This document shows positions 1,976 through 59,664 of a stretch of 64,000 nt of DNA, in pieces; positions within the stretch are counted from its first letter, which is position 1; every line of letters starts with the position of its first letter. Source of the stretch: a bacterium. GTDB lineage: Bacteria; Verrucomicrobiota; Kiritimatiellia; CAIKKV01; CAITUY01. The position numbers were made by a program, and so were the translations under genes. Below the pieces are notes generated by a model. That model was not told where the DNA came from and made no database searches. It was given only the letters and a program-made list of their open reading frames with translations. The stretch covers positions 518-64,517 of the forward strand of contig JBAXPK010000007.1 in the NCBI GenBank assembly GCA_037132275.1, read 5' to 3'.

Positions 1976-2018
1976 GTAACCACTCCCTAATCCCTGACTA
2001 ACATTTCGGATTCATAGT
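1976..2018 (+). promoter_or_regulatory. Pho-box-like promoter element: three 11-bp-phased CTRAY motifs plus a CATAGT -10-like hexamer
   Basis: GTAAC at 1976, CTAAT at 1987, CTAAC at 1998. Palindrome TGACTA-N14-TAGTCA at 1995-2020. CATAGT at 2013-2018, exactly 15 nt after the proximal CTAA as at the other copies. Confidence 0.45.
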
Positions 2019-4131: not shown

Positions 4132-4155
4132 GCGGGGTCTGCTGGAGTAAGGTTC

Positions 4156-5280: not shown

Positions 5281-5293
5281 AAGGGCTCGTATT

Positions 5294-6244: not shown

Positions 6245-6247
6245 GCC

Positions 6248-7150: not shown

Positions 7151-7154
7151 ACCC

Positions 7155-8003: not shown

Positions 8004-8013
8004 AGGACATACC

Positions 8014-8775
8014 ATGACAGCCAATACCCCTATTGAAGTGAAAGACCTGAATGTGCATTACGGCACGATCCATGCTTTGAAAAATATCCACGTTAGTATC
8101 CCCAATTGCCAGATCACGGCAGTCATCGGCCCCTCGGGGTGCGGTAAGTCTACCTTGTTGCGTTCGTTCAACCGCATGCTCGACACCATGGATGATGTGC
8201 GGGTCACAGGCGGGGTGCTGGTCGACGGTGAGAATATTTTTGCGGCCAATGCGGATGTGCCGCGTCTACGCCGCAAGATGGGACTGCTTTCTCAGCGGCC
8301 GTTTCTCCTGCCTATGTCGATCTATGACAATGTGGCCTACGGGCCGCGCATCCATGGGATCAGCCGCCATTCCGACCTGGATTGCACCGTGGAAAAATAC
8401 CTCCGGATGGCCAACATGTGGGATGAGGTCAAGGATCGTCTTCGCGAGCCCGCTGCAAAGCTGTCGATCGGTCAACAGCAACGGCTCTGCCTGGCGCGGG
8501 GCCTCGCTGTGGAACCCGAGATTATCCTGGCGGACGAGCCCACCTCGGCGCTGGACCCGATTTCAAGCCGTCACATTGAACAACAATTCCGAGAGTTACG
8601 GGCTGACTACACGCTGGTGATGGTGACCCATATTCTTCGGCAGGCCCGTCGCCTGGCCGACTATGTGCTTTTCATGTATCTGGGTGAACTCATCGAGCAC
8701 GGGCCGGCGGCCGAACTGTTTGAGAATCCCCGCGAGGAATTGACGAAGGATTATATCAAGGGAACGATCAGTTAG
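8014..8775 (+). CDS. pstB: Phosphate ABC transporter ATP-binding protein PstB
   Basis: Walker A GPSGCGKST, signature LSIGQQQRLCLARGL, Walker B IILADEPTSALD. PstB-typical N-terminus (VKDLNVHYG) and C-terminus (TKDYIKG). Confidence 0.85.
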   Translation: MTANTPIEVKDLNVHYGTIHALKNIHVSIPNCQITAVIGPSGCGKSTLLRSFNRMLDTMDDVRVTGGVLVDGENIFAANADVPRLRRKMGLLSQRPFLLPMSIYDNVAYGPRIHGISRHSDLDCTVEKYLRMANMWDEVKDRLREPAAKLSIGQQQRLCLARGLAVEPEIILADEPTSALDPISSRHIEQQFRELRADYTLVMVTHILRQARRLADYVLFMYLGELIEHGPAAELFENPREELTKDYIKGTIS

Positions 8776-8786
8776 GAGGCCAGGCC

Positions 8787-9308
8787 ATGGTGAGTAGTAA
8801 GATTCAACCTGCAGTCGTGTGGTTCACCGGATTATCAGGGTCCGGCAAGAGTACCCTTGCTGAGAAGGTGGAGCACGCCCTGAAGATGCGTGGCGTGGAC
8901 ACCGAGATTCTGGATGGCGACCGGGTTCGCGCGGTCTTTCCGAGCATCGGGTTCTCCCTTGAGGAGCGCAACGCGCATATCCGCCGCATGGGCTTCATGG
9001 CGGGTCTCCTTGAGAAACACGGTGTGGTGGTGCTGGCGAGTTTCGTGTCGCCTTATGCAGAGGCCCGCCAGGCGGCGCGGTGGCAATGCCGCAATTTTAT
9101 TGAGGTCTATCTTTCCACCCCCCTCGCCGAATGCGAGCGGCGCGATGTGAAAGGTCTCTACGGCAAGGCGCGCCGGGGCGAGATCTCCAACTTCACCGGA
9201 GTCAGTGATCCGTATGAAGTTCCGGAGAATCCGGATCTGGTTATCGACACCACCGCCATGAGTGTGGAGGAATCTGTTGCCCTGGTTCTGGGGAGATTGC
9301 AGTCATGA
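8787..9308 (+). CDS. cysC: Adenylylsulfate (APS) kinase CysC
   Basis: [56 protein letters not shown]. All canonical APS kinase motifs are retained. Confidence 0.85.
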
Positions 9309-10210
9309 CAATCCATTCCCTGACCCATTTGAAGCAACTGGAAGCCGAGAGCATTCATATCATGCGCGAGGTGGCCGCAGAATTCGAGCGGCCGGTCATG
9401 CTTTACTCGGTCGGGAAAGACTCATCGGTCATGGTGCGGCTGGCCCAGAAGGCCTTTTACCCCGGACGGATTCCCTTTCCACTGATGCATGTGGATACAG
9501 GTTTCAAATTCGGGGAGATGATTGAGTTCCGTGACCGGTTTGTGAAGGAGATCAAGGCGGATCTTATTGTGCATCAGCATGAAAAATCAGCCGACCTGTC
9601 GGTGAATCCCTTTGCCCTCGGAACCCAGAAGTGCTGTGCGATACTTAAGACGCAGGCTCTGGTGGAAGCCATACGCAAACATAAGTTTGACGCCGCTTTC
9701 GGGGGCGCCCGCCGCGAGGAGGAGAAATCGCGGGCCAAGGAGCGGGTGTTCTCCTTTCGGGACGAGCTCGGGCAGTGGGATCCCAAAAACCAGCGTCCGG
9801 AACTGTGGAGCCTCTATAATACCCGGGTCAACACAGGCGAATCCATCCGAGTATTCCCCATCTCCAACTGGACCGAGTTGGATGTCTGGCAATATATCTA
9901 CATGGAAAAGATTCCGGTGGTGCCCATGTACTTTGCGCAGGAGCGCGACATGATTGTGAGGGATGAGCAGTTGATTCCGTTCCAGGAAACCACGCCGCTC
10001 AAACCGGGCGAACACCCCTGCAAAGTGCTGAGTCGATTCCGCACCCTGGGCTGTTATCCCTGTACCGGGGCCATCCGGTCATCGGCGTCAACGGTGGCGG
10101 AAATCATCGAGGAAATGATGGTCGTACGCATCTCCGAACGTTCGACCCGCGTGATTGATCATGACGCCGAGGGCTCGATGGAAATGAAGAAACGGGAAGG
10201 GTATTTCTAG
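9305..10210 (+). CDS. cysD: Sulfate adenylyltransferase subunit 2 CysD
   Basis: [35 protein letters not shown] (PP-loop), [11 protein letters not shown], and the C-terminal KKREGYF typical of CysD. ATGA overlap with cysC. Confidence 0.9.
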
Positions 10211-10211
10211 A

Positions 10212-12143
10212 ATGAATGCGATTGAGGCATTTCTGGCGGAGAATGAGAAGAAGGATCTGCTTCGGTTTTCGACGGCGGGCAGCATTGACGACGGCAAGTC
10301 AACCCTGATCGGCCGTTTACTGCACGACTCAAAGAATGTCTACGAGGATACGCTGGCGTCGATCAAAAAGGCGTCTCGTGAAAAAATGTCGGAGGAACAG
10401 ATCGACCTTGCCTTGCTCACTGACGGTCTTAAGGCAGAACGCGAGCAGGGGATCACCATTGACGTCGCCTACCGCTATTTTTCGACACCGCGCCGGAAAT
10501 TCATCATCGCCGACACGCCCGGACACGAGCAATACACCCGGAATATGGCGACCGGCGCCTCGACCGCCAATCTTTCGGTTGTGCTGGTGGATGCGCGTCA
10601 TGGCATCCTTCCCCAGACGCGGCGCCATGCGTTTATCGCCTCCCTGCTGGGGGTGCCGCACATGATTGTGGCCGTGAACAAAATGGATGCCGTGGACTAT
10701 CGGGAAGACGTCTTTCAGGCGATTCGCGACGAGTTCGCTGAGTTTGCCTCGAAGCTGGGCATCAAGGATCTGCGTTTCATTCCGCTGAGTGCCCTCAAGG
10801 GCGATAACGTCGTCCATCGCAGTGGAAACATGACCTGGTACCGGGGCGAAAGCCTGATGGAAATCCTGGAGAACGTCTACATCGGCAGCGACCATAATCT
10901 CGTGGATCTGCGGTTCCCCATCCAATATGTGGTGCGCCCGGATATGGGCTTCCGCGGCTATGCCGGAGTTGTCACCTCCGGTGTCATCCGTCGGGGGGAT
11001 GAGGTGTTGGCGCTCCCTTCGATGAAAGTCAGCCGGGTCAAATCGATTGTCACCTTTGATGGCGACGTGGAAGAGGCCTGTTCGCCCATGTCGGTAACGG
11101 TCACCCTGGAAGACGAGCGTGATATCAGCCGCGGGGAAATGCTGGTCCGTCCGCATAACCTTCCCAAAATGGACCGGCGTTTTGAAGGCATGGTGGTGTG
11201 GATGGGGGATGCCCCAATGGATCTGAATGCCAGCTATTTCATCAAGCACACCACCCGCCTGACCCGGTGCCGGGTGGACGAAATCCGTTACAAGGTGAAT
11301 GTGAACACCCTGGCCAGAGAGGCCATGACGGGACTCGCCTTGAATGACATTGGCCGGGTTGTCTTCACCGCCAATCAACCCCTGTTCAGTGATTCCTACG
11401 AGAAGAACCGGGGAACCGGCTCATTTATCCTGATTGACCCCGTGACCAACGCCACTGCGGCAGCCGGGATGATCATTGATCGCGAACCAGCGGAACAGCT
11501 TGTTTCCCGCATCACCCCCGGGGTAGGGGCGCACACGATGAGCCGGCATGGCCGCCAGATCGAGGCCGGGGAGCGGGTGGCGCGTTATGGGCAGAAGCCG
11601 GCGACCCTGTGGCTGACCGGTCTGGTGGGATCGGGAAAATCAAGTCTGGCTGGCGCGCTAGAGCGGAAGCTTTTCGACTTGGGCGCCGTCAGCGTTGTCC
11701 TCGATGGTTCGAATGTGCGGTCGGGCCTCAACCGTGAACTGGATTTCACGTCCGAGGGGATGGCCGAACATCTCCGCCGCGTCGCTGAGATGGCTCGGCT
11801 CCTGAACGATGCCGGGTTGGTGGTTATATGCGCCTTTGTTTCCCCTCATGAAAAGGTGCGCCGGCAGGTGGCTGAAATTATTGGAATCGACCGGTTTCTG
11901 GAAGTTCACGTGGATGCGCCCCTTGAGTGGTGCCAGGCTCACGACCACACTGGGTTCTATCAGCGGGCCGAGGTAGGCGAGGTGCGCAACGTGGCGGGCA
12001 TCAGTTTTCCTTATGAAGCGCCGACCACGCCCTCGCTCAGGGTGTCGACGCCGGATATGACGCCTGAAGGTGCTGTATCAATCGTCATGAACCTGCTGCG
12101 TAAACAAGGGATATTCCCGGTCGGTGCTCTCTCAAATGAGTGA
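10212..12143 (+). CDS. cysN: Sulfate adenylyltransferase subunit 1 (CysN GTPase) fused to an APS-kinase-like C-terminal domain
   Basis: GTPase motifs [21 protein letters not shown]. The C-terminal domain starts about 11601 ([15 protein letters not shown]) but has LDGSNVR instead of LDGDNVR, plus other substitutions. Confidence 0.85.
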
Positions 12144-12176: not shown

Positions 12177-12590
12177 TTGAAGATTCCAAACAGCGTGGAA
12201 CGCGTTCTTAAATTTGGCGTGGTCGGGGTCTTGACCTTCGCGCTGGATCTTATTCTTCTTTATGTTTGTATCGACTGGTTGGAATGGAATTACATTATCG
12301 CGACGGGAATCGCGTTCACAATGGCCGTTTCTGTAAACTATTATGGCGACCGGCGCTGGGTGTTCAAAGGCACTCTCAGGTCCATCCGGGCGGGGTATGT
12401 TATTTTCATGGTCATCGGATGCGTGGGCGCGGCCATTGCCATGGTCGGCATGTCCGTCCTCGTGGGGGTTTTCCACATTCATTATTTTGCATCGCGCATC
12501 GCCATTGCGAGCCTGGTGGGCCTGTGGAACTATTTCATGAACCTCTATGTAAACTTTCAGGTGACAGGCAAGCACGGGGAGGCTTCCTGA
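12177..12590 (+). CDS. GtrA-family membrane protein
   Basis: 137 aa with 4 TM segments. FGVVGVLTFALDLILLYV...NYYGDRRWVFK matches the GtrA-like pattern. The TTG start is uncertain. Confidence 0.6.
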   Translation: MKIPNSVERVLKFGVVGVLTFALDLILLYVCIDWLEWNYIIATGIAFTMAVSVNYYGDRRWVFKGTLRSIRAGYVIFMVIGCVGAAIAMVGMSVLVGVFHIHYFASRIAIASLVGLWNYFMNLYVNFQVTGKHGEAS

Positions 12591-12636
12591 ATCTGTTTCC
12601 CGTCCCCGCAGCCCGGGTGTGCCGGCTTGCGAGCAT

Positions 12637-12679
12637 CTAACGTGAGCGTTGTTGTTTCCTAACATAGGGTGTCTATCGT
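12637..12679 (+). promoter_or_regulatory. Promoter-like element: CTAAC-N17-CTAAC-N10-TATCGT
   Basis: CATCTAACG (12634-12642), N10, TGTTTCCTAACA (12653-12664), then TATCGT at 12674-12679. It lies 28 nt upstream of ATG 12707, which has an AAGGAGG RBS. Confidence 0.45.
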
Positions 12680-12706
12680 CTTTCCAAGTTAAGGAGGAAT
12701 GACGAT

Positions 12707-12895
12707 ATGAAATGTTTAAAATGCAACGACGAAGTAGATATTAAGAAGAACGAAATCCCGCCACGTTGGTACGGGCATTACGAGAACGCGAAACTCGCGA
12801 AGCTCATGTGCGTGGAATGCCTTGTGACCCATAAAGAGATATGGGATTTGGTACGGACGGGGTGTGGGGGTGGTAAGCAAGCCCTTTCGGCTTGA
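12707..12895 (+). CDS. Small zinc-ribbon protein (two CxxC pairs)
   Basis: 62 aa with CLKC...CVEC. Strong RBS aaggagg 8 nt upstream. Locally AT-rich codons. Short hairpin caagcc/ggcttg over the stop codon. Confidence 0.5.
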   Translation: MKCLKCNDEVDIKKNEIPPRWYGHYENAKLAKLMCVECLVTHKEIWDLVRTGCGGGKQALSA

Positions 12896-12924
12896 CTGTT
12901 CTCGTCCACCCTGCTGACGAACAT

Positions 12925-12967
12925 CTAACGAGCGGGTCGCTGTTTCCTAACAGGGTTGGCTTATGAT
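12925..12967 (+). promoter_or_regulatory. Promoter-like element, twin of 12637..12679
   Basis: CATCTAACG (12922-12930), N10, TGTTTCCTAACA (12941-12952), then TATGAT at 12962-12967. Identical spacing to the first copy. Confidence 0.45.
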
Positions 12968-13003
12968 GTGGTTTTTGATCGTTTACAAACGGAGCAACAT
13001 ATC

Positions 13004-13330
13004 ATGGCAAAGAAGGCAGTGAAAAGCGCGGTGACGACGCGTGCAACGGTAAAACCGCAACTACCCCGGCGTAAGCGGGTAACATTCCGGTTTCAGGCGA
13101 AAGAAGGAGCCGATGTGCGTGTGGCGGGGAGTTTTAACAACTGGGATCCCAAGGCCCGGCTCCTGAACCCGGCGAAGGGAAACGGCGAGTACGCCAGTGC
13201 GATTCTGCTTCCGGCGGGACGTCACGAATACAAGTTCATCGTGGATGGCCAATGGCTTGGTGATCCGGTCTGTGCTGAGAAGGTTCCGGACGGGCACGGC
13301 GCGATGAATAGCGTGGTTGTGGTCGAGTAG
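13004..13330 (+). CDS. Small CBM48 / AMPK-beta-type glycogen-binding-domain protein
   Basis: VTFRFQAKEGADVRVAGSFNNWDP...YKFIVDGQWLGDP is the classic CBM48 pattern. ATG 13004 has GGAG 8 nt upstream. The track start at 12956 lies upstream of the predicted -10. Confidence 0.7.
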   Translation: MAKKAVKSAVTTRATVKPQLPRRKRVTFRFQAKEGADVRVAGSFNNWDPKARLLNPAKGNGEYASAILLPAGRHEYKFIVDGQWLGDPVCAEKVPDGHGAMNSVVVVE

Positions 13331-13379
13331 GTGGGTGCGGTATCGCCCCGGGTACTCCGATAACGGGGCAACCAAAACG

Positions 13380-14318
13380 ATGACACGATTTCCTGGCGTA
13401 TTATTGTTGTCTTTCCTGGGCATGACGGCTACCGCCCTGGCCGGTGCCGACACAAATTTTTTCTCTGAGGTCGCCGGGCGATTTCACCCGTCCAAGCCGT
13501 CTGCGGTCATGAATTACGACGTGAGCTACGCTCTGATGAGTATTCGTCTCAAGCGCGTCGCCAGCGCCACGATGACCGCCACCGAGGGGGTGTGGTGCGG
13601 TAGCGTCTCCAACTCGTCGAGCCCCGCCTGCATGATCGATTTTTTTGTCGCCACGCCCCGGGGCGACGAGGGCGAGATGAGTCTATATAAGCGCACGGTC
13701 TCCGTGCTGACCCTACCGGATTTGAAACTCATTACGTATGTGAAGCAAAACGATGAATTCATCAAGCCGTTCTTCGGGAAAGGGCGGCGGATGAAATATA
13801 CCGAGGAGTATAACTTCGAGCCCGCCGCTATGACCTACCGCCGCCACGATTTTGTGACCGGCACGGTGGAAACGAATCTCCAGGGCATGGCCGACCTGGC
13901 TAGGCAGAGCACGGAAGTCGCCGATGTGATCCGTGCCTTGTATGCGTCCTACCAGGGGGCCCCGGCGGTCGGTCGGCCTGTGGCGGACAAGATTCATTTT
14001 AACGTGGATGGCGCCGTCCGGACGTTCGATCTCAAGATGAAGAAGGGACGGATATCAGTCCCTGTTCTGTCTCGGAAACTCATGGCGTTGTATGCCGACA
14101 TCCAGCCGGGGGCGGGATGTACCGACCGGAATGAAAGCTTTTCCATGTGGTGCGTGCCGTTCAAGGAACTCTCTCGTGAAACGAATGATCCGAAACTGCA
14201 GCAACTTGCCGAAACGAGTCTGGAGTGCTCCATGGTGCCCTTATCAGGAGAGTACGCTTTGTTCCTGGGCAGTTTGCAGTGCACGCTCGCCACCATTGGC
14301 ACCCATTCCTGGGATTAA
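13380..14318 (+). CDS. Hypothetical secreted protein
   Basis: Signal peptide MTRFPGVLLLSFLGMTATALAGA from ATG 13380. No family confidently recognised; any DUF3108 resemblance is weak. Confidence 0.45.
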   Translation: MTRFPGVLLLSFLGMTATALAGADTNFFSEVAGRFHPSKPSAVMNYDVSYALMSIRLKRVASATMTATEGVWCGSVSNSSSPACMIDFFVATPRGDEGEMSLYKRTVSVLTLPDLKLITYVKQNDEFIKPFFGKGRRMKYTEEYNFEPAAMTYRRHDFVTGTVETNLQGMADLARQSTEVADVIRALYASYQGAPAVGRPVADKIHFNVDGAVRTFDLKMKKGRISVPVLSRKLMALYADIQPGAGCTDRNESFSMWCVPFKELSRETNDPKLQQLAETSLECSMVPLSGEYALFLGSLQCTLATIGTHSWD

Positions 14319-14378
14319 GCTCAACCCTAGGGGCCGGGCGCGATGCCGGGGCAGTACTGACTAGACCCCAATGAAATC

Positions 14379-14421
14379 CTAATGGTTGTCAAACATTGCT
14401 CTAACGATTGAATGTTATAAT
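14379..14421 (+). promoter_or_regulatory. Promoter-like element: CTAAT-N17-CTAAC-N10-TATAAT
   Basis: CTAAT at 14379, CTAAC at 14401, perfect TATAAT at 14416-14421. The ATG at 14432 is 11 nt after the hexamer and has no SD, so the mRNA is probably leaderless or nearly so. Confidence 0.5.
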
Positions 14422-14431
14422 TCACATCCAT

Positions 14432-16810
14432 ATGGAATCAGCTACGGGTACAATGACAGGCGGCGATGATCTGGCAAGGCTCCGCAGCCTGTTGCAGATG
14501 GGTGAAGGCGGTGACCGCCTGGCTGAGGCGCTGCCATTCGGCATTGGCGATGCGACGGCAGGCGCCGAGAACGAACTGCAGACGGTGGTAACTGGTCCTC
14601 GCGAACAGGTAGATCTGGCCCGTGCGGTGGAGGAATCGAGCTACTTCAAGAACCTCATGCGGCGCGCCGCCGTGGGGGAAGCCTCCAAGAGCCTGGTTCG
14701 GGACATTAAGGATTTCCTGGCGGACAACCGGGAGTCGGCTTGGGAGAACAGTTGGGTGTACTTCCCGGCAGACCTCATGACGCCTTATGCGCAGTCCGTG
14801 TTCGAGGGGGATCTGTATGCCGACAAACAGGCGCCGGGCGTCCGCCGATCAGATGCAGGCCGTTTTGAGATTCAACGCAACGGGATCCGTTGCGTTCGCA
14901 TTCCCGTAAGTTATCTCCTGAAGCTGGCACTGGCCGATGCCATCAGCTTCGGTCGGGAACCGCACCCGGTGGTTCGCAGCACAGGCGAGAGGCTGATGCG
15001 TCATTTCCTCAACGACAACACCTCTCCCGAGACGCTGTCGTTCCACACAGTGGGTTCATCGTCCGAGCCGGGATTGGGCCGTGCGCTGGCAGAGGAGACG
15101 CTGAGGCGTTTTCTGCTGGTGCAGTTTCTGACCATGTACGCGAACGAGAAGTTCGAGCTGCGCGCAAGGGGGCAGCAGACGCTGGTCTGCCTCGCGCCGC
15201 ACACCCCCCGGCGCCAGAAGCAGTTGAATGAAATGGTGGCGGACTCGTTCTATCGCGACCTCTTCATGAGTCCATGCCTGTCAGGGTGGGATCGCGGGGA
15301 GGACAAGTACCATTATATGATCCTGTGCCACGAGGTGCTTTCGCGCAGCCGGCTCAACACCATGGCAAAGCTGCGCGAGTGTGGCATTCTTTCACGGGAT
15401 TTGGTGACCCTGCCGACGGTGTCCAACACGAGCCTGGCCAACAACGGCACGCATATCACCCTGGGCAGCCGCCGCCTTACCGCCTTGATGGCCCCCGGCG
15501 GGGGCAATGGGTTCACGGCGCAGGACGAAAAACGGACGGGCGACCTCGTTGTAAAGATTGTTGAACATTTTCTCCCCCTCTTTGTCGGGACTTACACAGC
15601 GGCGCCGCACCGGTTGGATTTTCGCGACTTTCATCCGGAGTCAGTGTTGGGATTTCTGCCGCACGAACTCGACTTCACCCATTTGCGCATGTTGTGGCGG
15701 CGCTGGCAGGGCAAGGCCGATCTCAAATGCCTGGGGGTCACGCTGACGCCCTTCGGGCCGCGTGCGCTGGATCGTTTCCTGGCCACGGTGCTCGGGTTAC
15801 GCGGCGACTGGGTGCCGGATCAGCGCCTGATTGACTACCTTGTCTCGCCCCTGAGCACGGACCACAGTCCGGCCCTTGACGGGACGATAGGCAATGATGA
15901 GCGGCTCAAGCGGGATCTGGCCCAGATGGGTGTGTTTGACCCACGGATGTCTTTCTACTCCCTGTATCGCCAGCGGATTTTCTCCAAGATGGGATTCTGC
16001 GGGTTTGAGGGGCGCCACTACAGCCAGTTCGCGAGCATCACCCGGGACATGGCTGCGGCCACCGATATGCAGCGGCTGGTTACCGCGTTGGCCTACCAGT
16101 ATGTGTTGACTGGCGCCGTGACCCATGTAGACATCCCGGACACGCCTGAAGTCGAGAGCGAACGGCGCCAGGTCTTTTTCGGGACGGCCATCGGTATCCC
16201 GACGTTTTTTGTCAGAACTCAGACCTCGAACCGGTTTCTCCAGCATATCCTGGGACGAGCGGCACGAACCCGTGATAGTCACCGGTATTCGGGGCGCACC
16301 CGCGTTTATAACGACGAATACCGCCGGGCACTAGTGGCAACCCTGGAACATGACGGTGCGGGGCTGATCGAATCCCTCGGGCTCGGTGAGACCGTGAGCG
16401 ACCTGAAGCGGAGAATCGAGCCGGCCGGAAAAGGATCGGCGCTGGACGCCCTCCTCACGGGAATTCTGGACGAGGCGGGAACCTCATCACCGCTGAAAGC
16501 GTCCGCAGGGACATTCAACGAGGCGGCGGAACGCTACTACCGGGACACCCTGCTGAAGAATTTTGTGGCTGAAGCGCTTGATTTGTTCGCCCGCGACCTG
16601 AAGGAACTCGCAAGCCGCTCGTCTGGCGGTGGGGAGGAGGCGAAGGCCCTATTGTCGGCGCTAAACGGGGAGGATCCGACTTCCTTCCTGGAGGCGGTAC
16701 GGGGCACGGTGCTGGAAGGGAAAGTCTCCCAGTCCGTTCTGGTCAAGCTCATCAGCCTCGTACTGCTGGTCATCCGCCACCACTGTGAAGAGAACGGAGG
16801 CAAACCATGA
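14432..16810 (+). CDS. Large conserved-looking hypothetical protein (793 aa), family not recognised
   Basis: Long uninterrupted ORF with even, cytoplasmic-type composition and no TM or signal peptide. Its stop overlaps the next start (ATGA at 16807-16810). The track start TTG 14408 lies inside the predicted promoter. Confidence 0.6.
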   Translation: MESATGTMTGGDDLARLRSLLQMGEGGDRLAEALPFGIGDATAGAENELQTVVTGPREQVDLARAVEESSYFKNLMRRAAVGEASKSLVRDIKDFLADNRESAWENSWVYFPADLMTPYAQSVFEGDLYADKQAPGVRRSDAGRFEIQRNGIRCVRIPVSYLLKLALADAISFGREPHPVVRSTGERLMRHFLNDNTSPETLSFHTVGSSSEPGLGRALAEETLRRFLLVQFLTMYANEKFELRARGQQTLVCLAPHTPRRQKQLNEMVADSFYRDLFMSPCLSGWDRGEDKYHYMILCHEVLSRSRLNTMAKLRECGILSRDLVTLPTVSNTSLANNGTHITLGSRRLTALMAPGGGNGFTAQDEKRTGDLVVKIVEHFLPLFVGTYTAAPHRLDFRDFHPESVLGFLPHELDFTHLRMLWRRWQGKADLKCLGVTLTPFGPRALDRFLATVLGLRGDWVPDQRLIDYLVSPLSTDHSPALDGTIGNDERLKRDLAQMGVFDPRMSFYSLYRQRIFSKMGFCGFEGRHYSQFASITRDMAAATDMQRLVTALAYQYVLTGAVTHVDIPDTPEVESERRQVFFGTAIGIPTFFVRTQTSNRFLQHILGRAARTRDSHRYSGRTRVYNDEYRRALVATLEHDGAGLIESLGLGETVSDLKRRIEPAGKGSALDALLTGILDEAGTSSPLKASAGTFNEAAERYYRDTLLKNFVAEALDLFARDLKELASRSSGGGEEAKALLSALNGEDPTSFLEAVRGTVLEGKVSQSVLVKLISLVLLVIRHHCEENGGKP

Positions 16811-17823
16811 TGGCACACCAGTATGTGGAACGGCGGAGTGCGTGCGCCGTCGGCGAGACGTTTTTTGGCGACCCGGTTGTCTCTTTTTTGTATTCACGGA
16901 TCCGTGAGGAGTCAGGGTGGTTGTACCGGGCGCTGACCTCATCCCGGCTGACCAACCTGCTGGGGATATTGCAGTTCGATGTCCGTCCCCGCGATCCCGC
17001 CCGTATGCGTTGGCGGCTGGCATCGGCGTGTGGAGTGGACTTTTCGGAATGTGCCGACCCGTTGGAGACTCTCGATACGGCGCGCAAGGTCTTTGAGCGC
17101 AAGATTCGCTATTGGGAGTGCAGGCCCATGGATCCCGATCCCGGGGCGATCGTATCCCCTTCGGATGCCCGTCTCTTGGTGGGTTCGTTCCAAAAGGTTT
17201 CCGGTTTGTTGCTCAAAGAAAAATTCTTCCGCTTCGAGGAATTGTTGGGCGATGATAAACTCGGCTGGCAGGAATCGTTCCGCGGCGGGGATTATGCCGT
17301 GTTACGACTGACGCCCGACAAGTACCATCGCAACCATGCGCCCGTGACCGGGGTGGTGAGGGATATCTACGAAGTGGACGGGGTCTTCCAGTCCTGCCAC
17401 CCCGCTGTCGTCATTGCCCAGGCCACGCCCTATTCCAAGAACCGGCGGACGGTTACGATCATTGACACCGATGTGCCGGGCGGAACACAAGCCGGGCTGG
17501 TGGCGATGGTCGAGGTGGTGGCGCTGATGATTGGCGAGATTGTGCAGTATTACTGTCAGGAGCGATACGATGCCCCCTTGGCAGTGTATAAAGGATTGCA
17601 CCTCTTGCGAGGATGCCCAAAGAGTCTGTTCCGCCCCGGCAGTTCCACGGTTGTGCTGGTGTTTCAACCGGGGCGCATCCGGTTTAGCGAGGATCTTGTG
17701 GCAAACCTCCGGCGTACCGATGTGAGGAGTTGTTACAGCGATGGAGAAGGAGGCGCCGTGGTGGAAACCGATGTGGCAGTCAGGTCAACCATTGCCCGCG
17801 TCGTTCCGGGAGGCCAGGCATGA
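16807..17823 (+). CDS. psd: Phosphatidylserine decarboxylase-family protein
   Basis: LRLTPDKYHRNHAPVTGVV and the self-cleavage-type motif FRPGSSTVVLVF (compare the canonical LGST). Confidence 0.7.
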   Translation: MMAHQYVERRSACAVGETFFGDPVVSFLYSRIREESGWLYRALTSSRLTNLLGILQFDVRPRDPARMRWRLASACGVDFSECADPLETLDTARKVFERKIRYWECRPMDPDPGAIVSPSDARLLVGSFQKVSGLLLKEKFFRFEELLGDDKLGWQESFRGGDYAVLRLTPDKYHRNHAPVTGVVRDIYEVDGVFQSCHPAVVIAQATPYSKNRRTVTIIDTDVPGGTQAGLVAMVEVVALMIGEIVQYYCQERYDAPLAVYKGLHLLRGCPKSLFRPGSSTVVLVFQPGRIRFSEDLVANLRRTDVRSCYSDGEGGAVVETDVAVRSTIARVVPGGQA

Positions 17824-18923
17824 GCGCCGCCATCGTCGTGGGAATCATGACGCTCTGCCTCGGGGTATTGTTTTTCTGGGCGTTTCGCGTCCTGCCCGGC
17901 GAGCCGTGGCAAATTCTGGCGGTATGGCCGCGCCAGAAGGAGCCTGATGGCACATGGCGCGGTACGAACCTGACTTACTATGGTCTATTCAATGGTCTAG
18001 GATTGGCGGTGGCGGTGGCGGTGACGGTGTTTCTGCTGGGAACCATGCGAATGCCGCTGCCCTATGTGGCGTGGTGTGTCTTTGTTCTCCTGGCGGTCAC
18101 GGTTCCTGCTTCCAAAATTGTCAATCGCATGGTGGAGGGACATTGGCACGGGTTCACCATTGGAGGGGCCTCATTCGTCGGGATGGTGGCGGGCCCCTGG
18201 TTGGTCTGGGGTATTTCCCGCCTGACTCTGTCAGCGGAGGAAGGGGCGATGGCGACGGTGTCTGTGATGGGTGCCATAGCGTGTGCCTATGCGTTGGGTG
18301 AAGGCATCGGGCGGTTAGCCTGCATCAGTTTCGGCTGTTGTTACGGGCGACCGCTGGCGGACTGTCCAGCCTGGCTTTCAAAATTATTCACTCACGGGGC
18401 TTTTGTCTTTGAGGGACGCTTAAAAAAATCCTCTTACGAACACAGGTATGAAGGCAAACGCCTGATTCCTGTGCAGGCCCTGACCGCCATCATCTCCAGC
18501 ATGGCCGGGCTCGTCGGCATGGCGGTATTCCTGGGCGGGCATCCGGTTCTAGCCTATGTGATGCCGGTTGTCGCTACGCAGGTGTGGAGGTTTGTGTCGG
18601 AATTCCTGCGGGCGGATTACCGGGGGGCGGGGCGGATTACTGCCTACCAGGGCATGGCCCTTGCGGGAGCGGCCTATACGGTGGCGCTTGGCCTTCTGTG
18701 GTCCGGCACGCTGGCGCTTACTCCCGATGTGGCTCGCGGCCTGGCGTTGCTATGGACTCCTGGCGCGATTCTATTAATTGAAGCCGTCGCCCTCTTTGTT
18801 GCCATTCGCATGGGCCTCAGTACAGTCACAACGGCCAGAATTCATTTCGGCCTCAGGCAGGATGGCGTGCCACCCGTGTCCCCTGCCTTGCGAACATCTG
18901 ACGGCTCGCTAACTCAGGACTAA
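17820..18923 (+). CDS. Lgt-like (prolipoprotein diacylglyceryl transferase family) polytopic membrane protein
   Basis: About 8 TM segments. GEGIGRLACISFGCCYGRPL resembles the Lgt GRxGxFxNGCCYG motif. ATGA overlap with the psd-like gene. Confidence 0.5.
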   Translation: MSAAIVVGIMTLCLGVLFFWAFRVLPGEPWQILAVWPRQKEPDGTWRGTNLTYYGLFNGLGLAVAVAVTVFLLGTMRMPLPYVAWCVFVLLAVTVPASKIVNRMVEGHWHGFTIGGASFVGMVAGPWLVWGISRLTLSAEEGAMATVSVMGAIACAYALGEGIGRLACISFGCCYGRPLADCPAWLSKLFTHGAFVFEGRLKKSSYEHRYEGKRLIPVQALTAIISSMAGLVGMAVFLGGHPVLAYVMPVVATQVWRFVSEFLRADYRGAGRITAYQGMALAGAAYTVALGLLWSGTLALTPDVARGLALLWTPGAILLIEAVALFVAIRMGLSTVTTARIHFGLRQDGVPPVSPALRTSDGSLTQD

Positions 18924-18940
18924 TCTTTCTGCGGCATAGT
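18898..18940 (+). promoter_or_regulatory. Pho-box-like promoter element containing a 26-bp palindromic unit
   Basis: CTGAC at 18898, CTAAC at 18909, GGACTAATCTT at 18917-18927. Palindrome GGACTA-N14-TAGTCC at 18917-18942. CATAGT at 18935-18940. Confidence 0.5.
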
Positions 18941-18950
18941 CCGCTGATCT

Positions 18951-19703
18951 ATGGCCGGTTCCCATAACCCTATCATGTCGGCGGGAGTCCTTCTCCTGAC
19001 TCTCTGCCTCCTTCCTGTCCACGCGGCCCATCCTCGCTTCTCTATCCCATCCCCAATCGCGCAGCCCTCTCCACTCACGAATAGGCCATCATTAATACCT
19101 TCCCCTTCCTTCTCTCGCTATTCCATCATCCTGACCCGGATGCCATTTGGAAACGAGGCGCCCTCTGTCGCCACTGCGGCCCGGGCCGAGGCCGCGGACA
19201 TTCCGGCTGAAAGTTTCTCCAAGACCCTTACGCTGTGCGCGATTACCCGAAGCCATGACACCGGCAAAGTCCAGGTTGGGCTTGTGGACCATGAGACCCG
19301 AAAAAGTTACTTCCTTGGCGAGGGTGATAAAGAAGATGGCCTGGAACTGAAGGAGGCCGATTATGTGGAGGAGAAGGCGTTACTCGCGATGGGGGAGAAG
19401 GAAGTGTGGTTGACGATGAAGGCGGGGGCGATGAAGACCCCTACGGGTGTCCGCAATCCATTCGGTTTTGAGAGCGCAACGTCTTCTCCACCGCCAAGCC
19501 CCGATGAGTCCGGAACCATGACCTTAGCGGCTATGAGCGGGGAGGCGGAGCCTGCCGCCGACAGTTTTAAGAAGCTCGTTATGAGTTCTCAAATGGAACT
19601 GCTTCGCGCCCGTGGCGCCAAGGGCCCGCCCTTGCCCATGGCCCTCACGCCAGAAATGGATGATCAACTCGTCAAGGAAGGCGTCCTCGCCCAGACGGAG
19701 TAG
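18951..19703 (+). CDS. Hypothetical secreted Pro/Ser-rich protein
   Basis: Signal peptide (SAGVLLLTLCLLPVHAAHP) followed by a low-complexity P/S region. ATG 18951 lies 11 nt after CATAGT, so the mRNA may be leaderless; the alternative start is ATG 18975. Confidence 0.45.
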   Translation: MAGSHNPIMSAGVLLLTLCLLPVHAAHPRFSIPSPIAQPSPLTNRPSLIPSPSFSRYSIILTRMPFGNEAPSVATAARAEAADIPAESFSKTLTLCAITRSHDTGKVQVGLVDHETRKSYFLGEGDKEDGLELKEADYVEEKALLAMGEKEVWLTMKAGAMKTPTGVRNPFGFESATSSPPPSPDESGTMTLAAMSGEAEPAADSFKKLVMSSQMELLRARGAKGPPLPMALTPEMDDQLVKEGVLAQTE

Positions 19704-19747
19704 GACAGAACGACATGGCGGGCGAGTATGAGCGCCCTTACAAAGTT

Positions 19748-19790
19748 CTGACCGCAGACTAATTCGAGACTAATCATTCTGCGGCATAGT
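19748..19790 (+). promoter_or_regulatory. Pho-box-like promoter element upstream of the phoB-like gene
   Basis: CTGAC at 19748. Tandem 11-mers AGACTAATTCG (19756-19766) and AGACTAATCAT (19767-19777). Palindrome AGACTA-N14-TAGTCT at 19767-19792. CATAGT at 19785-19790. Confidence 0.55.
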
Positions 19791-19843
19791 CTGACCCAGA
19801 TTATATCCCGGGCGCTGTTCCCGTTCGCAGGGACGACTATTCT

Positions 19844-20542
19844 ATGGCTGTTGCTCAGAAACATATACTGATTGTTGAAGACGAGGATGATATCCTTGAG
19901 TTGGAGCGCTACAATCTGACGCGGGAGGGCTTCAGCGTGGCCGCAGTTTCGCGCGGCGAGGATACCCTCAAGGCGGTGACCCAGAAGAGGCCGGATCTCA
20001 TTCTCCTGGATCTCATGCTGCCGGGTATGAACGGGCTTGAAGTGTGCCAGAAACTCAAAGCAGATCCCTCAACCGCCGACATCCCGATCATCATGGTCAC
20101 AGCCAAAGGCGAGGAATCGGACATCATTGTGGGGCTGGAACTCGGGGCGGACGATTATGTGAACAAGCCCTTCAGCATCAAAGTGCTCATTTCCCGCATC
20201 CGTGTTGCGCTGCGCCGTCAGCCGATCAAAGCTTATGACCAGAAGCATGGCCTGCGGGTCGGTGACGTGGAGATCAATCCCAGCCGTTTTCAGGTGAAGA
20301 TCAAGGGAAAACCCATTGTGGGGCTCACGGTGACAGAGTTCCACCTGCTTCACTTTCTTGCCAGCCGTTCAGGCCGTGTCATGAACCGGCAACAGATCCT
20401 GGATGCTGTGCGCGGTGAGGATATTGCCGTGACTGAGCGGGCGGTGGATGTCCAGATGGTCGGCTTACGCAAGAAGCTCGGCTCCGCCGCAGATTACATT
20501 GAGGCCGTGCGTGGAGTGGGATACCGCTTCAGGGACGGCTGA
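19844..20542 (+). CDS. phoB: OmpR/PhoB-family response regulator (PhoB-like)
   Basis: REC domain (ILIVEDEDD...DLILLDLMLPGMNG...VTAKGEESDIIVGLELGADDYVNKPFS). Winged-helix domain (TEFHLLHFL, RAVDVQMVGLRKKL, VRGVGYRF). Close motif-by-motif to E. coli PhoB. No adjacent kinase. Confidence 0.75.
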   Translation: MAVAQKHILIVEDEDDILELERYNLTREGFSVAAVSRGEDTLKAVTQKRPDLILLDLMLPGMNGLEVCQKLKADPSTADIPIIMVTAKGEESDIIVGLELGADDYVNKPFSIKVLISRIRVALRRQPIKAYDQKHGLRVGDVEINPSRFQVKIKGKPIVGLTVTEFHLLHFLASRSGRVMNRQQILDAVRGEDIAVTERAVDVQMVGLRKKLGSAADYIEAVRGVGYRFRDG

Positions 20543-20902
20543 GTCCTGCTGTGACCCTGTCGATGGCCCGCTGATCGCGCCTCCACACCTCCTTAAAACA
20601 CGTTTTCCACCCTTTCGGTGTCTCCGTAAGACTAATTGAAAAAAACGGAAGCTCTAATTCACTCCAAACGCTCATTTTTCATGATGCTGATGTTTTCAAA
20701 GGCTTAGGAGGTGCGCGAAGTCGGTCGGCATGGTCGGCAACAAGGCGCGGCAAGAAAGAACAGAGAAGGAGGTGAACACGAGAAAAGACGGGGATGGAAT
20801 ACGGAAGAAGGCGTGAGTCGATAACCAGTAAGATAGCATTTAACTTGAGCAAGATCATAAACGGAAAAGTTAAGACTAAAGAAACAAACAGGAATAAAAA
20901 GA

Positions 20903-23110: not shown

Positions 23111-23142
23111 TTAATATCAGGCTAACAATCGGAACCTATAAT
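23111..23142 (+). promoter_or_regulatory. Promoter-like element: TTAAT-N6-CTAAC-N10-TATAAT
   Basis: TTAAT at 23111, AGGCTAACAAT at 23119-23129, perfect TATAAT at 23137-23142. Same register as the 1995, 18917 and 19767 copies. Lies 29 nt upstream of ATG 23171. Confidence 0.45.
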
Positions 23143-34949: not shown

Positions 34950-35121
34950 GCTGATTCAGAAGTAACACCCTGCTAATTGTTTTCAAATCCAGCATTCGTT
35001 TACTCTGTCCGCAGTGAGTCATGGAGCGCGGATCAGGGATGATGCGCGTGGCGTAATGGGTTGTGATGAGGCGTCCGGCGTTGCGTTGCGGGCGCGTGGA
35101 AATTATGGAGGATTGAACGAA

Positions 35122-41162: not shown

Positions 41163-42395
41163 ATGATGGCCCCCGGGGTGGTTCCGGAAATCACAAGTGA
41201 TGCCCTGCATCGGGATTATCCCGCCCTGACGGTGGTCGAGACCCGCTGCCTGCGGGATGTTGCCTGTGGCATTTATCCCTGTTACTTCCGGCGTCTGTCC
41301 GATCGGCTCAGGGTCGCTTCCTCGGCGGTGGCGCTTATTGCCGATATCGGCGATATCCAAATCAATCCGGCATTTCAGCCGCGTGAATACCTGCTTGGTG
41401 ACAATGCCCGGCAACATTTCATTCATGGAACCGCGCGGTTGCCGCAGGCCCTGAAGGATTCCGCCAAGCGGCGGCTGCCCACCGCGCTACTCCGCCGCCT
41501 GTCGAAGGATCGGTTCTGGTATGAATCATGGGCGACGGTTGATGCCCGGGTGTTCAAGCTCAAGCCCTTCGAGCGCGTTACGCCGGAAGGCTCAGCTGAT
41601 ATGTTCAAGCCGGATTTCTCACTCCGCAACGCGGATGCTCTGGTCGAAGGGGTGGCCTGTCATCTGGAGCGTTTCGTCCGGGACATGGAGGAGCATTATC
41701 CCGAGCATGATCACATCATGATGATCGGCGGCAAGGACAGCCAGCTTCTCGCCCTGATCCCCAAGCGGCGTCCGGAACGGTGGCATGTGTTCAGCGCCGC
41801 CCCGAATAGCAGTCTCGTTTTGCAATGGCTGGCGTGGAATAATGTGGAGGCGGCAGAGGTATTCAGCGACGACGGGCGGAACGTGGAGACGCAGAGCGAA
41901 ACGCAACGCAAGATCGTTTGCAGCGATCTCTACTCGGATCCTCGACACATGCGCTGGCTACCGGCACTGCGCCGCATTGCCAGGAGCTTCACCTCCCGAT
42001 GTTTTTTTTGGTCCGGCTCCGCCGCCGATGCGCTGCACGTCGGACACTCGTTTCATCAGCGCTATGCGTCCCGGGATCCCGTGGAATTCTTCGATATCCA
42101 TCTAAAGCGCGTGCCGTGCCTCGTCGGAAACTACCATCAGGTGGTCAAGAACTTTACGGGCTGCCCGTTGCTTTGCCCTTATCAGACGGATGAAATCTGG
42201 CGCGAGGTTTACTCCCACCATGGCCCTGCGGTCATTCCCGCCGGTGTGGATCTTCGCCCCCGTATCGGCGAACGGCTGGCAGGGCGGCCCATCCGCTGGC
42301 TGGACACCAATCCCGGACCTGAGCCCTACCGGTATGAGCAGCCGTTCAATGCCCGTGAAATCTATTTAAAACGATTGAGGAGTATTCGTTCTTAA
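41163..42395 (+). CDS. Hypothetical cytoplasmic protein with a PP-loop-like motif
   Basis: 410 aa with no TM. HIMMIGGKDSQLLALIP resembles the SGGxDS ATP-pyrophosphatase loop. Otherwise unrecognised. Confidence 0.4.
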   Translation: MMAPGVVPEITSDALHRDYPALTVVETRCLRDVACGIYPCYFRRLSDRLRVASSAVALIADIGDIQINPAFQPREYLLGDNARQHFIHGTARLPQALKDSAKRRLPTALLRRLSKDRFWYESWATVDARVFKLKPFERVTPEGSADMFKPDFSLRNADALVEGVACHLERFVRDMEEHYPEHDHIMMIGGKDSQLLALIPKRRPERWHVFSAAPNSSLVLQWLAWNNVEAAEVFSDDGRNVETQSETQRKIVCSDLYSDPRHMRWLPALRRIARSFTSRCFFWSGSAADALHVGHSFHQRYASRDPVEFFDIHLKRVPCLVGNYHQVVKNFTGCPLLCPYQTDEIWREVYSHHGPAVIPAGVDLRPRIGERLAGRPIRWLDTNPGPEPYRYEQPFNAREIYLKRLRSIRS

Positions 42396-42509
42396 TCGAA
42401 TCCTGACGTTCTGCTTGTTGTCGCCTGACAGGTTGTTGGCAGGCTACAGCATGAAAAAGGTGTGACAGGCCCTGGGGGGATTGTGGCGTTTGGCGGGGGT
42501 ACTCATTCG

Positions 42510-50839: not shown

Positions 50840-50903
50840 AATTGTGTCCCCCTGAAATTGGTTGAGTGAAGCAACTGAATGGCAACATCATCCCGAAAAA
50901 CGG

Positions 50904-52445
50904 TTAGCGAGGAATTAGTGATTGGGTATTTTTTGGTCTGGAAGGCGCGGCCCCCGCATCAGCCGGAGTGGGGGCGGTTGCCTCCCGTTCATAGGCCTGC
51001 ATGCGGTGGATGGCAGGCCGCATGATGGCCGTGTAAGCCGCCCAGGCGGCGAGGGCTCCCACCACCACGCGAGCCGGAGACCAGGGGAGAAGCGTTGTCC
51101 AGGGAATGGCAAACAGGATGACTAACACGGCGGCCATGGCGCCTGCGAAGCGACCCCAGGCAAACCAGACCCGCTCCCGTGTCGGGATGCGCCACCAGAG
51201 ATAGCCGGCCACGATCCAGACGGACACCGAGCCGGACAGCGCTATGCCGGGCACGCCCTGGTGGCGCAGTAAGAGATTGCCGATCGCATGGGCGAACACG
51301 GCCAGCAGTCCCATGCCGACCATCCCTTTAAGGTCGCGTCTGATGACATAGAGTCCGGCGAGGCATTGGACGCAGTAAATGGCGGGGATGCTTAGCGCGA
51401 AGATGCGCACAGCGACGATCACGATTTCCGACGAGGGCGCGTCAAACTTGCCGCGCAGGAGGAGGAGGGTGACAATGTCGCGGGCCGCCCAGGCAATAAC
51501 GACAGCCAGCAACATGCCCAGCGCGGAGAGGAACAGCGACCCCTGCTTGGCCAGCCGGTTGGGGTCCGCGATTCTTGCATGAATCCGCACCATCTCGGGT
51601 AACCAGGGTATCAACAGGCTGGTCGAGAGCAGGAAGGGCATCATGCGGGCGAGCCGGTCGGCATAGGAAAACAAGGCGATGGATCCTGGTGCCATGAATG
51701 ACATCATGGCGCGATCCAGGACACCTTCCACCTGCATCTGGATGACGGAGCAGAGCACCACGATGGCGCCCAGCCAAAACGGCAACAGATGACGTGGATG
51801 AACCGGCACCCACCGGGTCGGCAGCATCTGGAAGCCTTTTCGGGTTCCCCATACAAAGAGCAGGAGCCATTGCGAGAAGGCGGCCACCGTCAGTCCCAGG
51901 GTGTAGGCCATGATGCCGCCGTGGCGGCCCAGGGTGAAGAGCGACACAATGGCGATAACGCGCCAGAGGGTCTCGCCCAATTCAGGGACGACAAACAGGC
52001 GGCGCGCATGAAATACGCTTTGTGCGGAGCCGAACAACAGAAACAACAGCAGGGACGGCGCCAGCATGCGGAGCAGCCGTTGTGCGTCATGGGCGGCTGC
52101 GGCGTCGAAGCCCGGCGACGTCAGTTTCACAATCAGGGGAGCGCCGACCCAGATCAGCAGGGTGATGGAAGCGGCGGCGATGATCACGACGATTTGGAAA
52201 TTCTCCGCGAAATCCTTGGGGCCATGGCCTTCGTCCGACTCCACCAGGCACGGCACGGCGGCGGTGCGGATCACCCGCGACAAATCACGCGCCAGGAAAA
52301 CGGCCACGGCCATGGCCACGAACAGGGCATCCACTTCGCGGCTGACGCCAAAGACGGCCGCCAGGCCGATGCTGAGCAGGAGCCCGAGCCCCGAATTTAG
52401 GGCGCGGAGAACGGCCAGTCTAAACCCTGTGGCTCCGAGTGACAC
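50904..52445 (-). CDS. MurJ/MviN-family (MOP superfamily) flippase
   Basis: About 14 TM segments. FGVSREVDALFVAMAV is a MurJ-like N-terminal motif. The GTG start at 52445 lies just after the upstream GT4 stop. The longer track ORF to 52835 overlaps that gene. Confidence 0.65.
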   Translation of the reverse strand: MSLGATGFRLAVLRALNSGLGLLLSIGLAAVFGVSREVDALFVAMAVAVFLARDLSRVIRTAAVPCLVESDEGHGPKDFAENFQIVVIIAAASITLLIWVGAPLIVKLTSPGFDAAAAHDAQRLLRMLAPSLLLFLLFGSAQSVFHARRLFVVPELGETLWRVIAIVSLFTLGRHGGIMAYTLGLTVAAFSQWLLLFVWGTRKGFQMLPTRWVPVHPRHLLPFWLGAIVVLCSVIQMQVEGVLDRAMMSFMAPGSIALFSYADRLARMMPFLLSTSLLIPWLPEMVRIHARIADPNRLAKQGSLFLSALGMLLAVVIAWAARDIVTLLLLRGKFDAPSSEIVIVAVRIFALSIPAIYCVQCLAGLYVIRRDLKGMVGMGLLAVFAHAIGNLLLRHQGVPGIALSGSVSVWIVAGYLWWRIPTRERVWFAWGRFAGAMAAVLVILFAIPWTTLLPWSPARVVVGALAAWAAYTAIMRPAIHRMQAYEREATAPTPADAGAAPSRPKNTQSLIPR

Positions 52446-54453: not shown

Positions 54454-54651
54454 GGGGTGTCCATCTATCGTTAGTCATTCGGTTGGTATATTCCCTCCAG
54501 TCTGTTGGGGCAGTGATAGCGGTGTGTAATAATTCCGTTTGAATGGCGGGTGTTCCAGACAGGTTGAGACAGCGCAGAGGCTGAGGTTCATGTGAGGGGC
54601 AGACCAGCTATGGACGTCGGAAAACACCTTGATCCGTGTCCGCCGGATGAG

Positions 54652-59616: not shown

Positions 59617-59664
59617 CGGCACCAGCGAAACTTCCGCGCCGGTTTCCGGGCCTCGAAATAAGAA

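Follow-up and report, generated by a model that had tools for sequence, protein, structure and literature searches.

Operators of the phosphate-starvation response (Pho boxes) have been described in several bacterial lineages. In Escherichia coli, the tandem direct repeats recognized by PhoB lie 10 bp ahead of the -10 box (PMC1906773), and the PHO box is formed by two 11-nt direct-repeat units whose consensus varies between lineages (PMC4415409). The cyanobacterial SphR box, described in Synechocystis, is composed of PyTTAAPyPy(T/A) repeats with 3-nt linkers, typically in three units (PMC4195498, PMC1906773), and the Pho response of Bacillus controls the synthesis of teichuronic acid, a phosphate-free anionic wall polymer (PMC4415409). 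In this study, a 64,000-nt stretch of DNA (the window; all coordinates are window positions) was analyzed from the metagenome-assembled genome (MAG) of an uncultured bacterium, whose closest named relatives carry the labels Lentisphaerales, Kiritimatiellia, and Verrucomicrobia. The window encodes a PhoB-like response regulator (19844..20542) and holds at least 11 arrays of phased 11-bp direct repeats, each co-oriented with its downstream gene. Based on their sequence, these arrays are probably the Pho-box-type operators of this lineage, including an autoregulatory one at the regulator gene. Pho boxes are a familiar kind of element; what is new here is the consensus, the lineage, and the predicted regulon of envelope and sulfation genes. 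In the literature collection searched, no paper was found that ties a Pho box to taxa of the Planctomycetes-Verrucomicrobia-Chlamydiae (PVC) group.

The starting point was a pair of 26-bp sequences, GGACTAATCTTTCTGCGGCATAGTCC at 18917-18942 and AGACTAATCATTCTGCGGCATAGTCT at 19767-19792, for which the initial annotation had reported 23/26 shared bases. The strings, coordinates, and identity were all exact on re-check. Also confirmed were a CTGAC further upstream of each copy (18898 and 19748), a tandem 11-mer AGACTAAT at 19756 and 19767, a CATAGT starting 10 bp past the conserved heptamer, and the distance of 52 nt from the end of the second copy to the ATG at 19844. A search for the 24-mer allowing up to three mismatches returned only these two places in the window, where 0.00 were expected. 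The strong identity was limited to the 26 bp, and beyond it only phased cores agreed. The two 26-mers are the promoter-proximal ends of phased direct-repeat arrays, each with two to four head-to-tail copies of a 5-bp core, CT(A/G)A(C/T), in an 11-bp register. Exactly 10 bp separate the last core from a -10-like hexamer (YAnnnT), and a -35 box is absent. At several sites a weaker fourth unit (CTTGC or CTTAC) was found 11 bp further upstream, and the full architecture reads (CTTrC)-N6-CTrAC-N6-CTAAY-N6-CTAAY-N10-YAnnnT. The conserved core is hence the shorter CT(A/G)A(C/T) instead of the GACTAAT proposed at first. Similarly, the two copies and the related ones noted at 1995 and 23119 are real, but they belong to a much wider pattern of at least 11 arrays with up to four units.

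The first copy lies in the array at 18887..18940 on the + strand (CTTGC-N6-CTGAC-N6-CTAAC-N6-CTAAT-N10-CATAGT, with the hexamer at 18935-18940). This array is ahead of a gene for a 250-aa protein (18951..19703, + strand) with a signal-peptide-like start at about 18976, and it is kept in the relatives L001 (9129-9151) and L007 (926-948). The stop codon TAA (18921-18923) of the preceding LGT-like gene (17730-18923) sits within its proximal unit, so that this coding sequence ends inside the promoter of the gene that follows. The second copy lies in the array at 19737..19790, also on the + strand (CTTAC-N6-CTGAC-N6-CTAAT-N6-CTAAT-N10-CATAGT, with the hexamer at 19785-19790), which is the predicted autoregulatory promoter of the response-regulator gene.

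Pattern counts across the window exceeded expectation by a wide margin. The CTAAY-N10-YATARTC pattern, with one mismatch allowed, occurred six times (0.38 expected), each time on the + strand and directly ahead of a gene read from that strand. All six had an extra CT(A/G)A(C/T) core 22 bp upstream, and often another at 11 bp. CTRAY-N17-CTRAY was found nine times (0.85 expected, and a maximum of four in 100 shuffles), again solely on the + strand and just ahead of + strand genes. The seven matches of CTRAY-N6-CTRAY (0.80 expected) included one on the - strand, which was upstream of a - strand gene. A histogram of core-to-core spacings peaked at 11, 22, 33, and 44 bp, while 756 kb of loci from other phyla showed no peak at 11 or 22 bp. 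The arrays have their proximal cores at 1998, 12659, 12947, 14401, 18920, 19770, 20654, 23122, 34973, and 42425 (all + strand), as well as at 50907 (- strand). The N10 spacing to a -10-like hexamer was observed at nine of these 11 sites and at most orthologous sites, and a sigma-70 consensus scan identified no -35/-10 pair in the array-bearing intergenic regions.

The two reported copies, with their near-identical spacers C[T/A]TTCTGCGG, are more alike (23/26, spacer included) than the box model calls for, and a promoter duplication may account for this. That the copies are nothing but such a duplication, or a small dispersed repeat resembling repetitive extragenic palindromes (REP) or miniature inverted-repeat transposable elements (MITE), without regulatory meaning, is hardly credible. 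The identity ends at 26 bp, no terminal repeats or target-site duplications were found, and every copy shares the orientation of its gene and keeps a constant distance to the -10 box. In addition, the core positions are kept across genomes whose regulators are only 51-92% identical.

Each of the two copies also contains the inverted repeat GACTA-N14-TAGTC, which matched three places in the window (1996, 18918, and 19768) where 0.02 were expected. Together with the near-identical spacer, this excess would fit an operator of a symmetric dimeric repressor placed over the -10 region. The repeat thus exists as the initial annotation described it, but only its left arm and the upstream direct repeats were retained in orthologous promoters. 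At the position of the right arm, L001 has CATGATTGG and CATCATGCA, L005 has CATCCTTAT, and the regulator promoter of L007 has CAAACTCTG. What is conserved there is the YAnnnT hexamer 10 bp past the last core, i.e., the -10 box, and TAGTC is simply the -10-like CATAGT plus a C. Furthermore, the other eight arrays in the window are not palindromic. The palindrome was therefore considered functionally incidental, since its right arm is a -10-like hexamer that orthologous promoters have not kept, and the symmetric operator was rejected as a very improbable reading. More generally, a striking palindrome can arise as a by-product of a direct-repeat operator that abuts a -10 box.

The gene following the second array (19844..20542, + strand) encodes a 232-aa response regulator of the OmpR/PhoB family with Response_reg and Trans_reg_C domains, and it is this protein that is predicted to bind the arrays. 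Among NCBIfam models, PhoB (TIGR02154, an equivalog) gave it the highest score, and its best solved relative was RegX3, the mycobacterial phosphate regulator. The receiver Asp, Thr, and Lys and the OmpR-type winged helix that characterize PhoB were all found: the phospho-acceptor D56 is present with T86 and K108, and across the orthologues D56 and K108 never vary and T86 rarely does. The recognition helix VTERAVDVQMVGLRKKLG is likewise kept. Among orthologues of 51-92% identity, the helix VT(E/D)R(A/S)VDVQ(M/I)V.(L/I)R(K/R)KLG and the wing RGVGYR were invariant or nearly so, a conservation that matches that of the DNA core.

The conservation of the arrays was assessed in regulator loci (numbered with L) that were gathered through protein homology alone and that included 17 independent orthologues. 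A peptide-pattern scan of genome contigs with the regulator contributed three close relatives (L007-L009) among the matches listed, as well as many PhoB homologues from other phyla, which were used as negative controls and for pst linkage. An exact YTRAY-N6-YTAAY pair was present within 180 nt upstream of 15 of the 17 orthologues, and the remaining two were one base off, with CCAAT in L005 and CTTAT in L091. The background of the pair in the same loci was 0.0056 per 180 nt, and the background matches were themselves promoter arrays. The autoregulation suggested earlier for the adjacent phoB-like gene was thereby supported in silico.

The leader of the regulator gene also includes a hairpin, GTTCCCGTTCGCAGGGAC, at 19816-19835 just before the start codon, which is retained with compensating changes in L007 (GGTCCCGTTGGCATGGAC). 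The ATG at 19844 has no obvious Shine-Dalgarno sequence, and the hairpin may be a translational or attenuation element.

In several relatives, the arrays were found at the core genes of the Pho response. In L089 (65% identical) and L090 (63%), the genes after the regulator encode a HAMP-PAS-HisKA kinase, a porin, PstS, PstC, PstA, PstB, and PhoU, and within these 20-kb loci arrays, with as many as four units each, occurred only before the regulator, the porin, and pstS. The regulator site is CTAAC-N6-CTAAC in both. The porin array of L089 reads TTAAC-N6-CTAAC-N6-CTCAT-N6-CTTAC-N10-TTGACT, and the pstS array of L090 reads TTAAC-N6-CTAAC-N6-CTGAC-N6-CTAAC-N10-TTAAAT. In L091 (73% identical), four perfect units precede an operon ending in phoU, and other arrays precede a giant Metallophos protein, a CBM48 gene, and glycosyltransferase and sugar-transferase operons. 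In L026, a Lentisphaeria genome, CGAAC-N6-CTAAC-N6-CTCAC was found before pstB, phoU, and the genes for a response regulator and a histidine kinase. As the arrays mark the promoters of phoB, pstS, porin, and phoU genes in relatives, they are most likely the Pho boxes of this lineage. Two predictions of the initial annotation, a lineage-specific Pho box and OmpR/PhoB-type 11-bp repeats that run head to tail and replace the -35 box, are thus supported by the comparative analysis in silico.

In the group of L087, L088, L093, L094, and L005, arrays were located before genes orthologous to those of the window, namely the beta-helix gene, the TPR/TonB-receptor genes, the CBM48 gene, and the genes for the 800-aa protein, the phosphatidylserine decarboxylase (PSD), and LGT. 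Arrays in this group were also found before a PfaA-like synthase. This synthase, of about 2650 aa with a KS-AT-ACP-KR organization, is encoded together with a phosphopantetheinyl transferase in L087 (1133-9061), L088 (1859-9802), and L094 (1548-9680), where the regulator is divergent from it and arrays on the opposite strand point at the synthase. In L003 (6390-9868), the genes before the regulator encode an OlsF-like acyltransferase (Acetyltransf_5) and a glycosyltransferase similar to monogalactosyldiacylglycerol (MGDG) synthase, which are candidates for the synthesis of phosphorus-free membrane lipids.

Within the window, nearly every transcription unit on the + strand between 2 and 43 kb has an array, and the corresponding gaps contain no canonical -35/-10 promoters. 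Because almost every + strand operon of the island was marked in this way, a general housekeeping promoter architecture was considered, where RNA polymerase itself would read CTAAY through its primary sigma factor or its alpha subunit. Such an explanation has very little probability and was rejected, as the pair is confined to the phoB, porin, and pstS promoters in the Lentisphaeria loci and the canonical Pho loci. Specifically, L003, L009, L017-L020, and L092 (10-20 kb each) have the pair only upstream of the regulator, and the arrays of L089 and L090 are restricted as described above. Full arrays were also absent upstream of araA, ahpC, phoU, and a glycosyltransferase gene at 53637 in the window. 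Moreover, tandem units that recur up to four times in an 11-bp register are the signature of a winged-helix regulator and not of a sigma factor.

Compared with the E. coli Pho box, the arrays share the head-to-tail repeats on an 11-bp register, with at least two boxes at strong promoters (PMC1906773, PMC4415409). The position also agrees with the E. coli geometry (PMC1906773), as the arrays are placed 10 bp upstream of the -10 box, replace the -35 box, follow the orientation of the gene, and precede phoB and pstS. The regulators of both systems combine a receiver with a winged-helix domain. In contrast, the 5-bp core CT(A/G)A(C/T) differs from the CTGTCAT of E. coli, the recognition helix is ERAVDVQMVGLRKKL, and the regulator of the window clade is located away from phoR and pst, with a predicted regulon of mostly envelope and polysaccharide genes.

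The closest published core is that of the SphR box (reference consensus from PMC4195498), which shares the 11-bp register (8 + 3) and occurs upstream of pstS, as well as at phosphatase genes. The SphR core TTAAY corresponds to (C/T)TAAY here, and TTAAC units occur in L089, L090, and L091. The comparison was made at the level of the DNA, where the register and the TAAY core agree. Unlike in the SphR box, position 2 is mostly C, conservation is lacking in the bases that follow the core (positions 7-8), and the organisms belong to a different phylum (PVC). The arrays also resemble the PhoP operators of Bacillus subtilis and Streptomyces in having several 11-nt direct-repeat units of variable number and quality (PMC2275107, PMC4415409), while the Streptomyces consensus is GTTCACC.

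By analogy with E. coli PhoB, the phosphorylated regulator would bind the arrays as tandem head-to-tail dimers, with one winged-helix domain contacting each unit. The bound protein would fill the -35 position, recruit the RNA polymerase holoenzyme, and activate transcription, which at the array of its own gene would amount to positive autoregulation. The signal is presumed to be phosphate limitation. The predicted regulon would include at least 11 transcription units within about 50 kb, among them the operon for sulfotransferases, a Pst-like transporter, and the synthesis of 3'-phosphoadenosine 5'-phosphosulfate (PAPS), as well as units for lipid genes, a secreted protein, TonB-dependent uptake, polysaccharide export and assembly, and a hybrid kinase.

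Several observations weigh against the assignment of the arrays to the Pho response. In the window, the arrays mostly precede genes for the envelope and for polysaccharides, and classical phosphate-scavenging genes are in the minority. The regulator scored 237.6 bits and hence fell below the curated PhoB cut-off of 296.2. Within its own clade (72-92% identity), no PhoR-type kinase or pst genes adjoin the regulator, although phoU does in L091. The region upstream of the phoU-like gene in the window (54454-54651) holds a single CTAAC only, in contrast to the four-unit array before phoU in L091. The sites at 20654 and 34973 have no credible -10 box at the canonical spacing, and the arrays could in truth be bound by another regulator, encoded elsewhere in the genome, that shares the recognition helix. 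The non-regulator sites were picked by pattern, which makes the logo partly circular, and the assignment as a whole rests on sequences of uncultured genomes.

Some of these observations would also agree with a different role, in which the arrays are OmpR/PhoB-family operators that answer a non-phosphate signal, and the regulator is a PhoB-derived orphan that controls the envelope and a sulfated polysaccharide while having kept its ancestral DNA specificity. In the clade of the window, the regulator always adjoins the Beta_helix_4/TPR/TonB-receptor cluster and lipid, glycosyltransferase, or polyketide synthase (PKS) genes instead of phoR or pst, and in the window no histidine kinase adjoins it. 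A hybrid kinase within the cluster has an array of its own. Additionally, the Lentisphaeria may have two forms of the regulator, one with a histidine kinase alone (L017-L020) and one in the order pstB, phoU, response regulator, and histidine kinase (L026), which are 55-60% identical to each other. Adjacency to pst-phoU or PhoR was seen in the 63-65% identical orthologues and in L026. The orphan status and the score under the PhoB equivalog cut-off leave this alternative a minor share of the probability, though it is unlikely overall. Perfect arrays precede phoU and the giant phosphoesterase in L091, and the array at 1976 in the window is ahead of pst-like genes. Regulator identity also declines without a break from 100% to 63%, the level at which the canonical phoBR-pst layout is found. 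Finally, the synthesis of phosphate-free lipids and anionic polymers is itself a classical Pho function, as in the case of teichuronic acid (PMC4415409). Placement before core Pho genes, rather than before genes generally, was thus observed in relatives, while in the window only the operon behind the 1976 array is pst-like.

Under the Pho-box interpretation, a more specific scenario can be proposed tentatively, and we regard it as rather less probable than its negation. The regulator would be an orphan PhoB orthologue whose Pho-box regulon has spread over an envelope island of about 50 kb, so that phosphate starvation shifts the cell surface to sulfated, phosphorus-free polymers and lipids. 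The island might then comprise PAPS synthesis, sulfotransferases, polysaccharide export and polymerization, lipid genes, and TonB-dependent uptake, and in relatives the PfaA-like polyketide or fatty-acid synthase and glycolipid or ornithine-lipid genes. For a Pho regulon that includes a polysaccharide cluster, the control of teichuronic acid in Bacillus offers a precedent, though the polymer predicted here would be a sulfated polysaccharide. Sulfated exopolymers are documented in Kiritimatiellae (PMC7356697), and this, together with the phosphate-free polymers under Pho control in Bacillus (PMC4415409), makes the predicted regulon plausible but unproven. If true, the system would be a Gram-negative, sulfate-based counterpart of the switch from teichoic to teichuronic acid.

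The arrays provide a concrete, testable Pho-box consensus, (CTTrC)-N6-CTrAC-N6-CTAAY-N6-CTAAY-N10-[-10], for a group without genetics, the relatives of Lentisphaerota, Kiritimatiellia, and Verrucomicrobiota. The consensus would allow Pho regulons to be predicted from MAGs of these polysaccharide-degrading and -producing bacteria. The co-regulation of sulfated-polysaccharide synthesis, TonB-dependent uptake, and lipid genes with phosphate acquisition, as predicted here, would tie phosphorus limitation to exopolymer production in sediments and guts.

The remaining arrays are distributed over an envelope and polysaccharide island that extends from position 1 to about 53 kb. The first open reading frame (ORF; 29-1873) encodes the C-terminal fifth of a giant secreted Big_7/Metallophos (phosphoesterase) protein of about 2600 aa. 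Its sequence matches the end of a 2615-aa L091 protein (12249-20096 of that locus) at 87% identity, and in L091 an array lies upstream of this protein. After a terminator hairpin (1901-1935), the array at 1976..2018 (+ strand; GTAAC-N6-CTAAT-N6-CTAAC-N10-CATAGT) is ahead of the operon at 2066-12143, which encodes an arylsulfotransferase-like protein, a sulfotransferase, PstS-like, PstC, PstA, and PstB proteins, CysC, CysD, and CysN-CysC. In NCBIfam, PstC was above its cut-off and PstA and PstB were just under theirs, while the binding protein of the transporter diverged strongly from PstS, scoring 93 bits where the cut-off is 206. The substrate of the transporter may be sulfate instead of phosphate, or the genes for phosphate uptake and PAPS synthesis may share one transcript.

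Three arrays with an N17 spacing follow on the + strand. The array at 12626..12679 (CTTGC-N6-CTAAC-N17-CTAAC-N10-TATCGT), whose middle unit is degenerate, is ahead of a 64-aa zinc-ribbon-like ORF (ATG at 12708) and is kept in L001 at 3222. At 12914..12967, CTGAC-N6-CTAAC-N17-CTAAC-N10-TATGAT precedes a CBM48/AMPK1_CBM-like gene (ATG at 13005), with orthologous arrays in L091 (20173) and L093 (498). The array at 14357..14421 (CTGAC-N6-CCAAT-N6-CTAAT-N17-CTAAC-N10-TATAAT) is ahead of the operon for the 800-aa protein and the phosphatidylserine decarboxylase-like and LGT-like proteins, and it is kept in L001 (4630) and L093 (963). Searches of Pfam and NCBIfam with the 800-aa protein, the 250-aa protein bracketed by the two reported copies, and the beta-helix protein identified no family.

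Downstream of the regulator, a two-unit site at 20632..20658 (+ strand; CTAAT-N17-CTAAT) is located about 245 nt upstream of the Beta_helix_4 gene (20903). It lies inside a conserved block, CTAATyGAAAAAAA-N8-CTAATTCAC, which is also found in L005, L087, L088, L093, and L094. With no -10-like hexamer at N10, it is a variant site whose role is uncertain. The 360-nt gap before the Beta_helix_4 gene (20543-20902) continues after this block with a long purine-rich tract, had no Rfam match, and could represent a long leader or a small RNA. The array at 23111..23142 (+ strand; TTAAT-N6-CTAAC-N10-TATAAT), which corresponds to the copy earlier placed at 23119, follows a terminator hairpin and is ahead of the cluster from 23171 onward that encodes TPR proteins, a TonB-dependent receptor, ExbB/ExbD, and TonB. 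This array is kept in L001, L087, L088, L093, and L094.

Further along the island, the array at 34951..34977 (+ strand; CTGAT-N6-GTAAC-N6-CTAAT), which has a poor -10 sequence (TCCAGC), is ahead of a Wza-like polysaccharide-export operon (35014 onward). The array at 42392..42445 (+ strand; TTAAT-N6-CTGAC-N6-CTTGT-N6-CTGAC-N10-CAGGCT) precedes the hybrid histidine kinase (42462-44165), which has the organization CBS-HisKA-HATPase-REC. The single array on the - strand (50887..50918; CTAAT-N6-CTAAC-N10-GATGAT) is ahead of an operon for a priming sugar transferase, a family 2 glycosyltransferase (GT2), and a methyltransferase (50839 downward), and the same site occurs in L091 at about 7048 on the minus strand. 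Other genes of the island encode Wzc-like export proteins besides the Wza-like ones, a deacetylase, a Wzy-like protein, and glycosyltransferases.

Toward the end of the window, the phoU-like gene (53800-54453) is a divergent orphan that scored 67.5 bits against a cut-off of 130. Rfam and tRNA scans of the entire window returned no matches. The gap between araA and ahpC (59499-60185) includes 687 nt without a long ORF, where a terminator-like hairpin and an A-rich tract were observed, and close before ahpC a small ORF would encode a membrane peptide.

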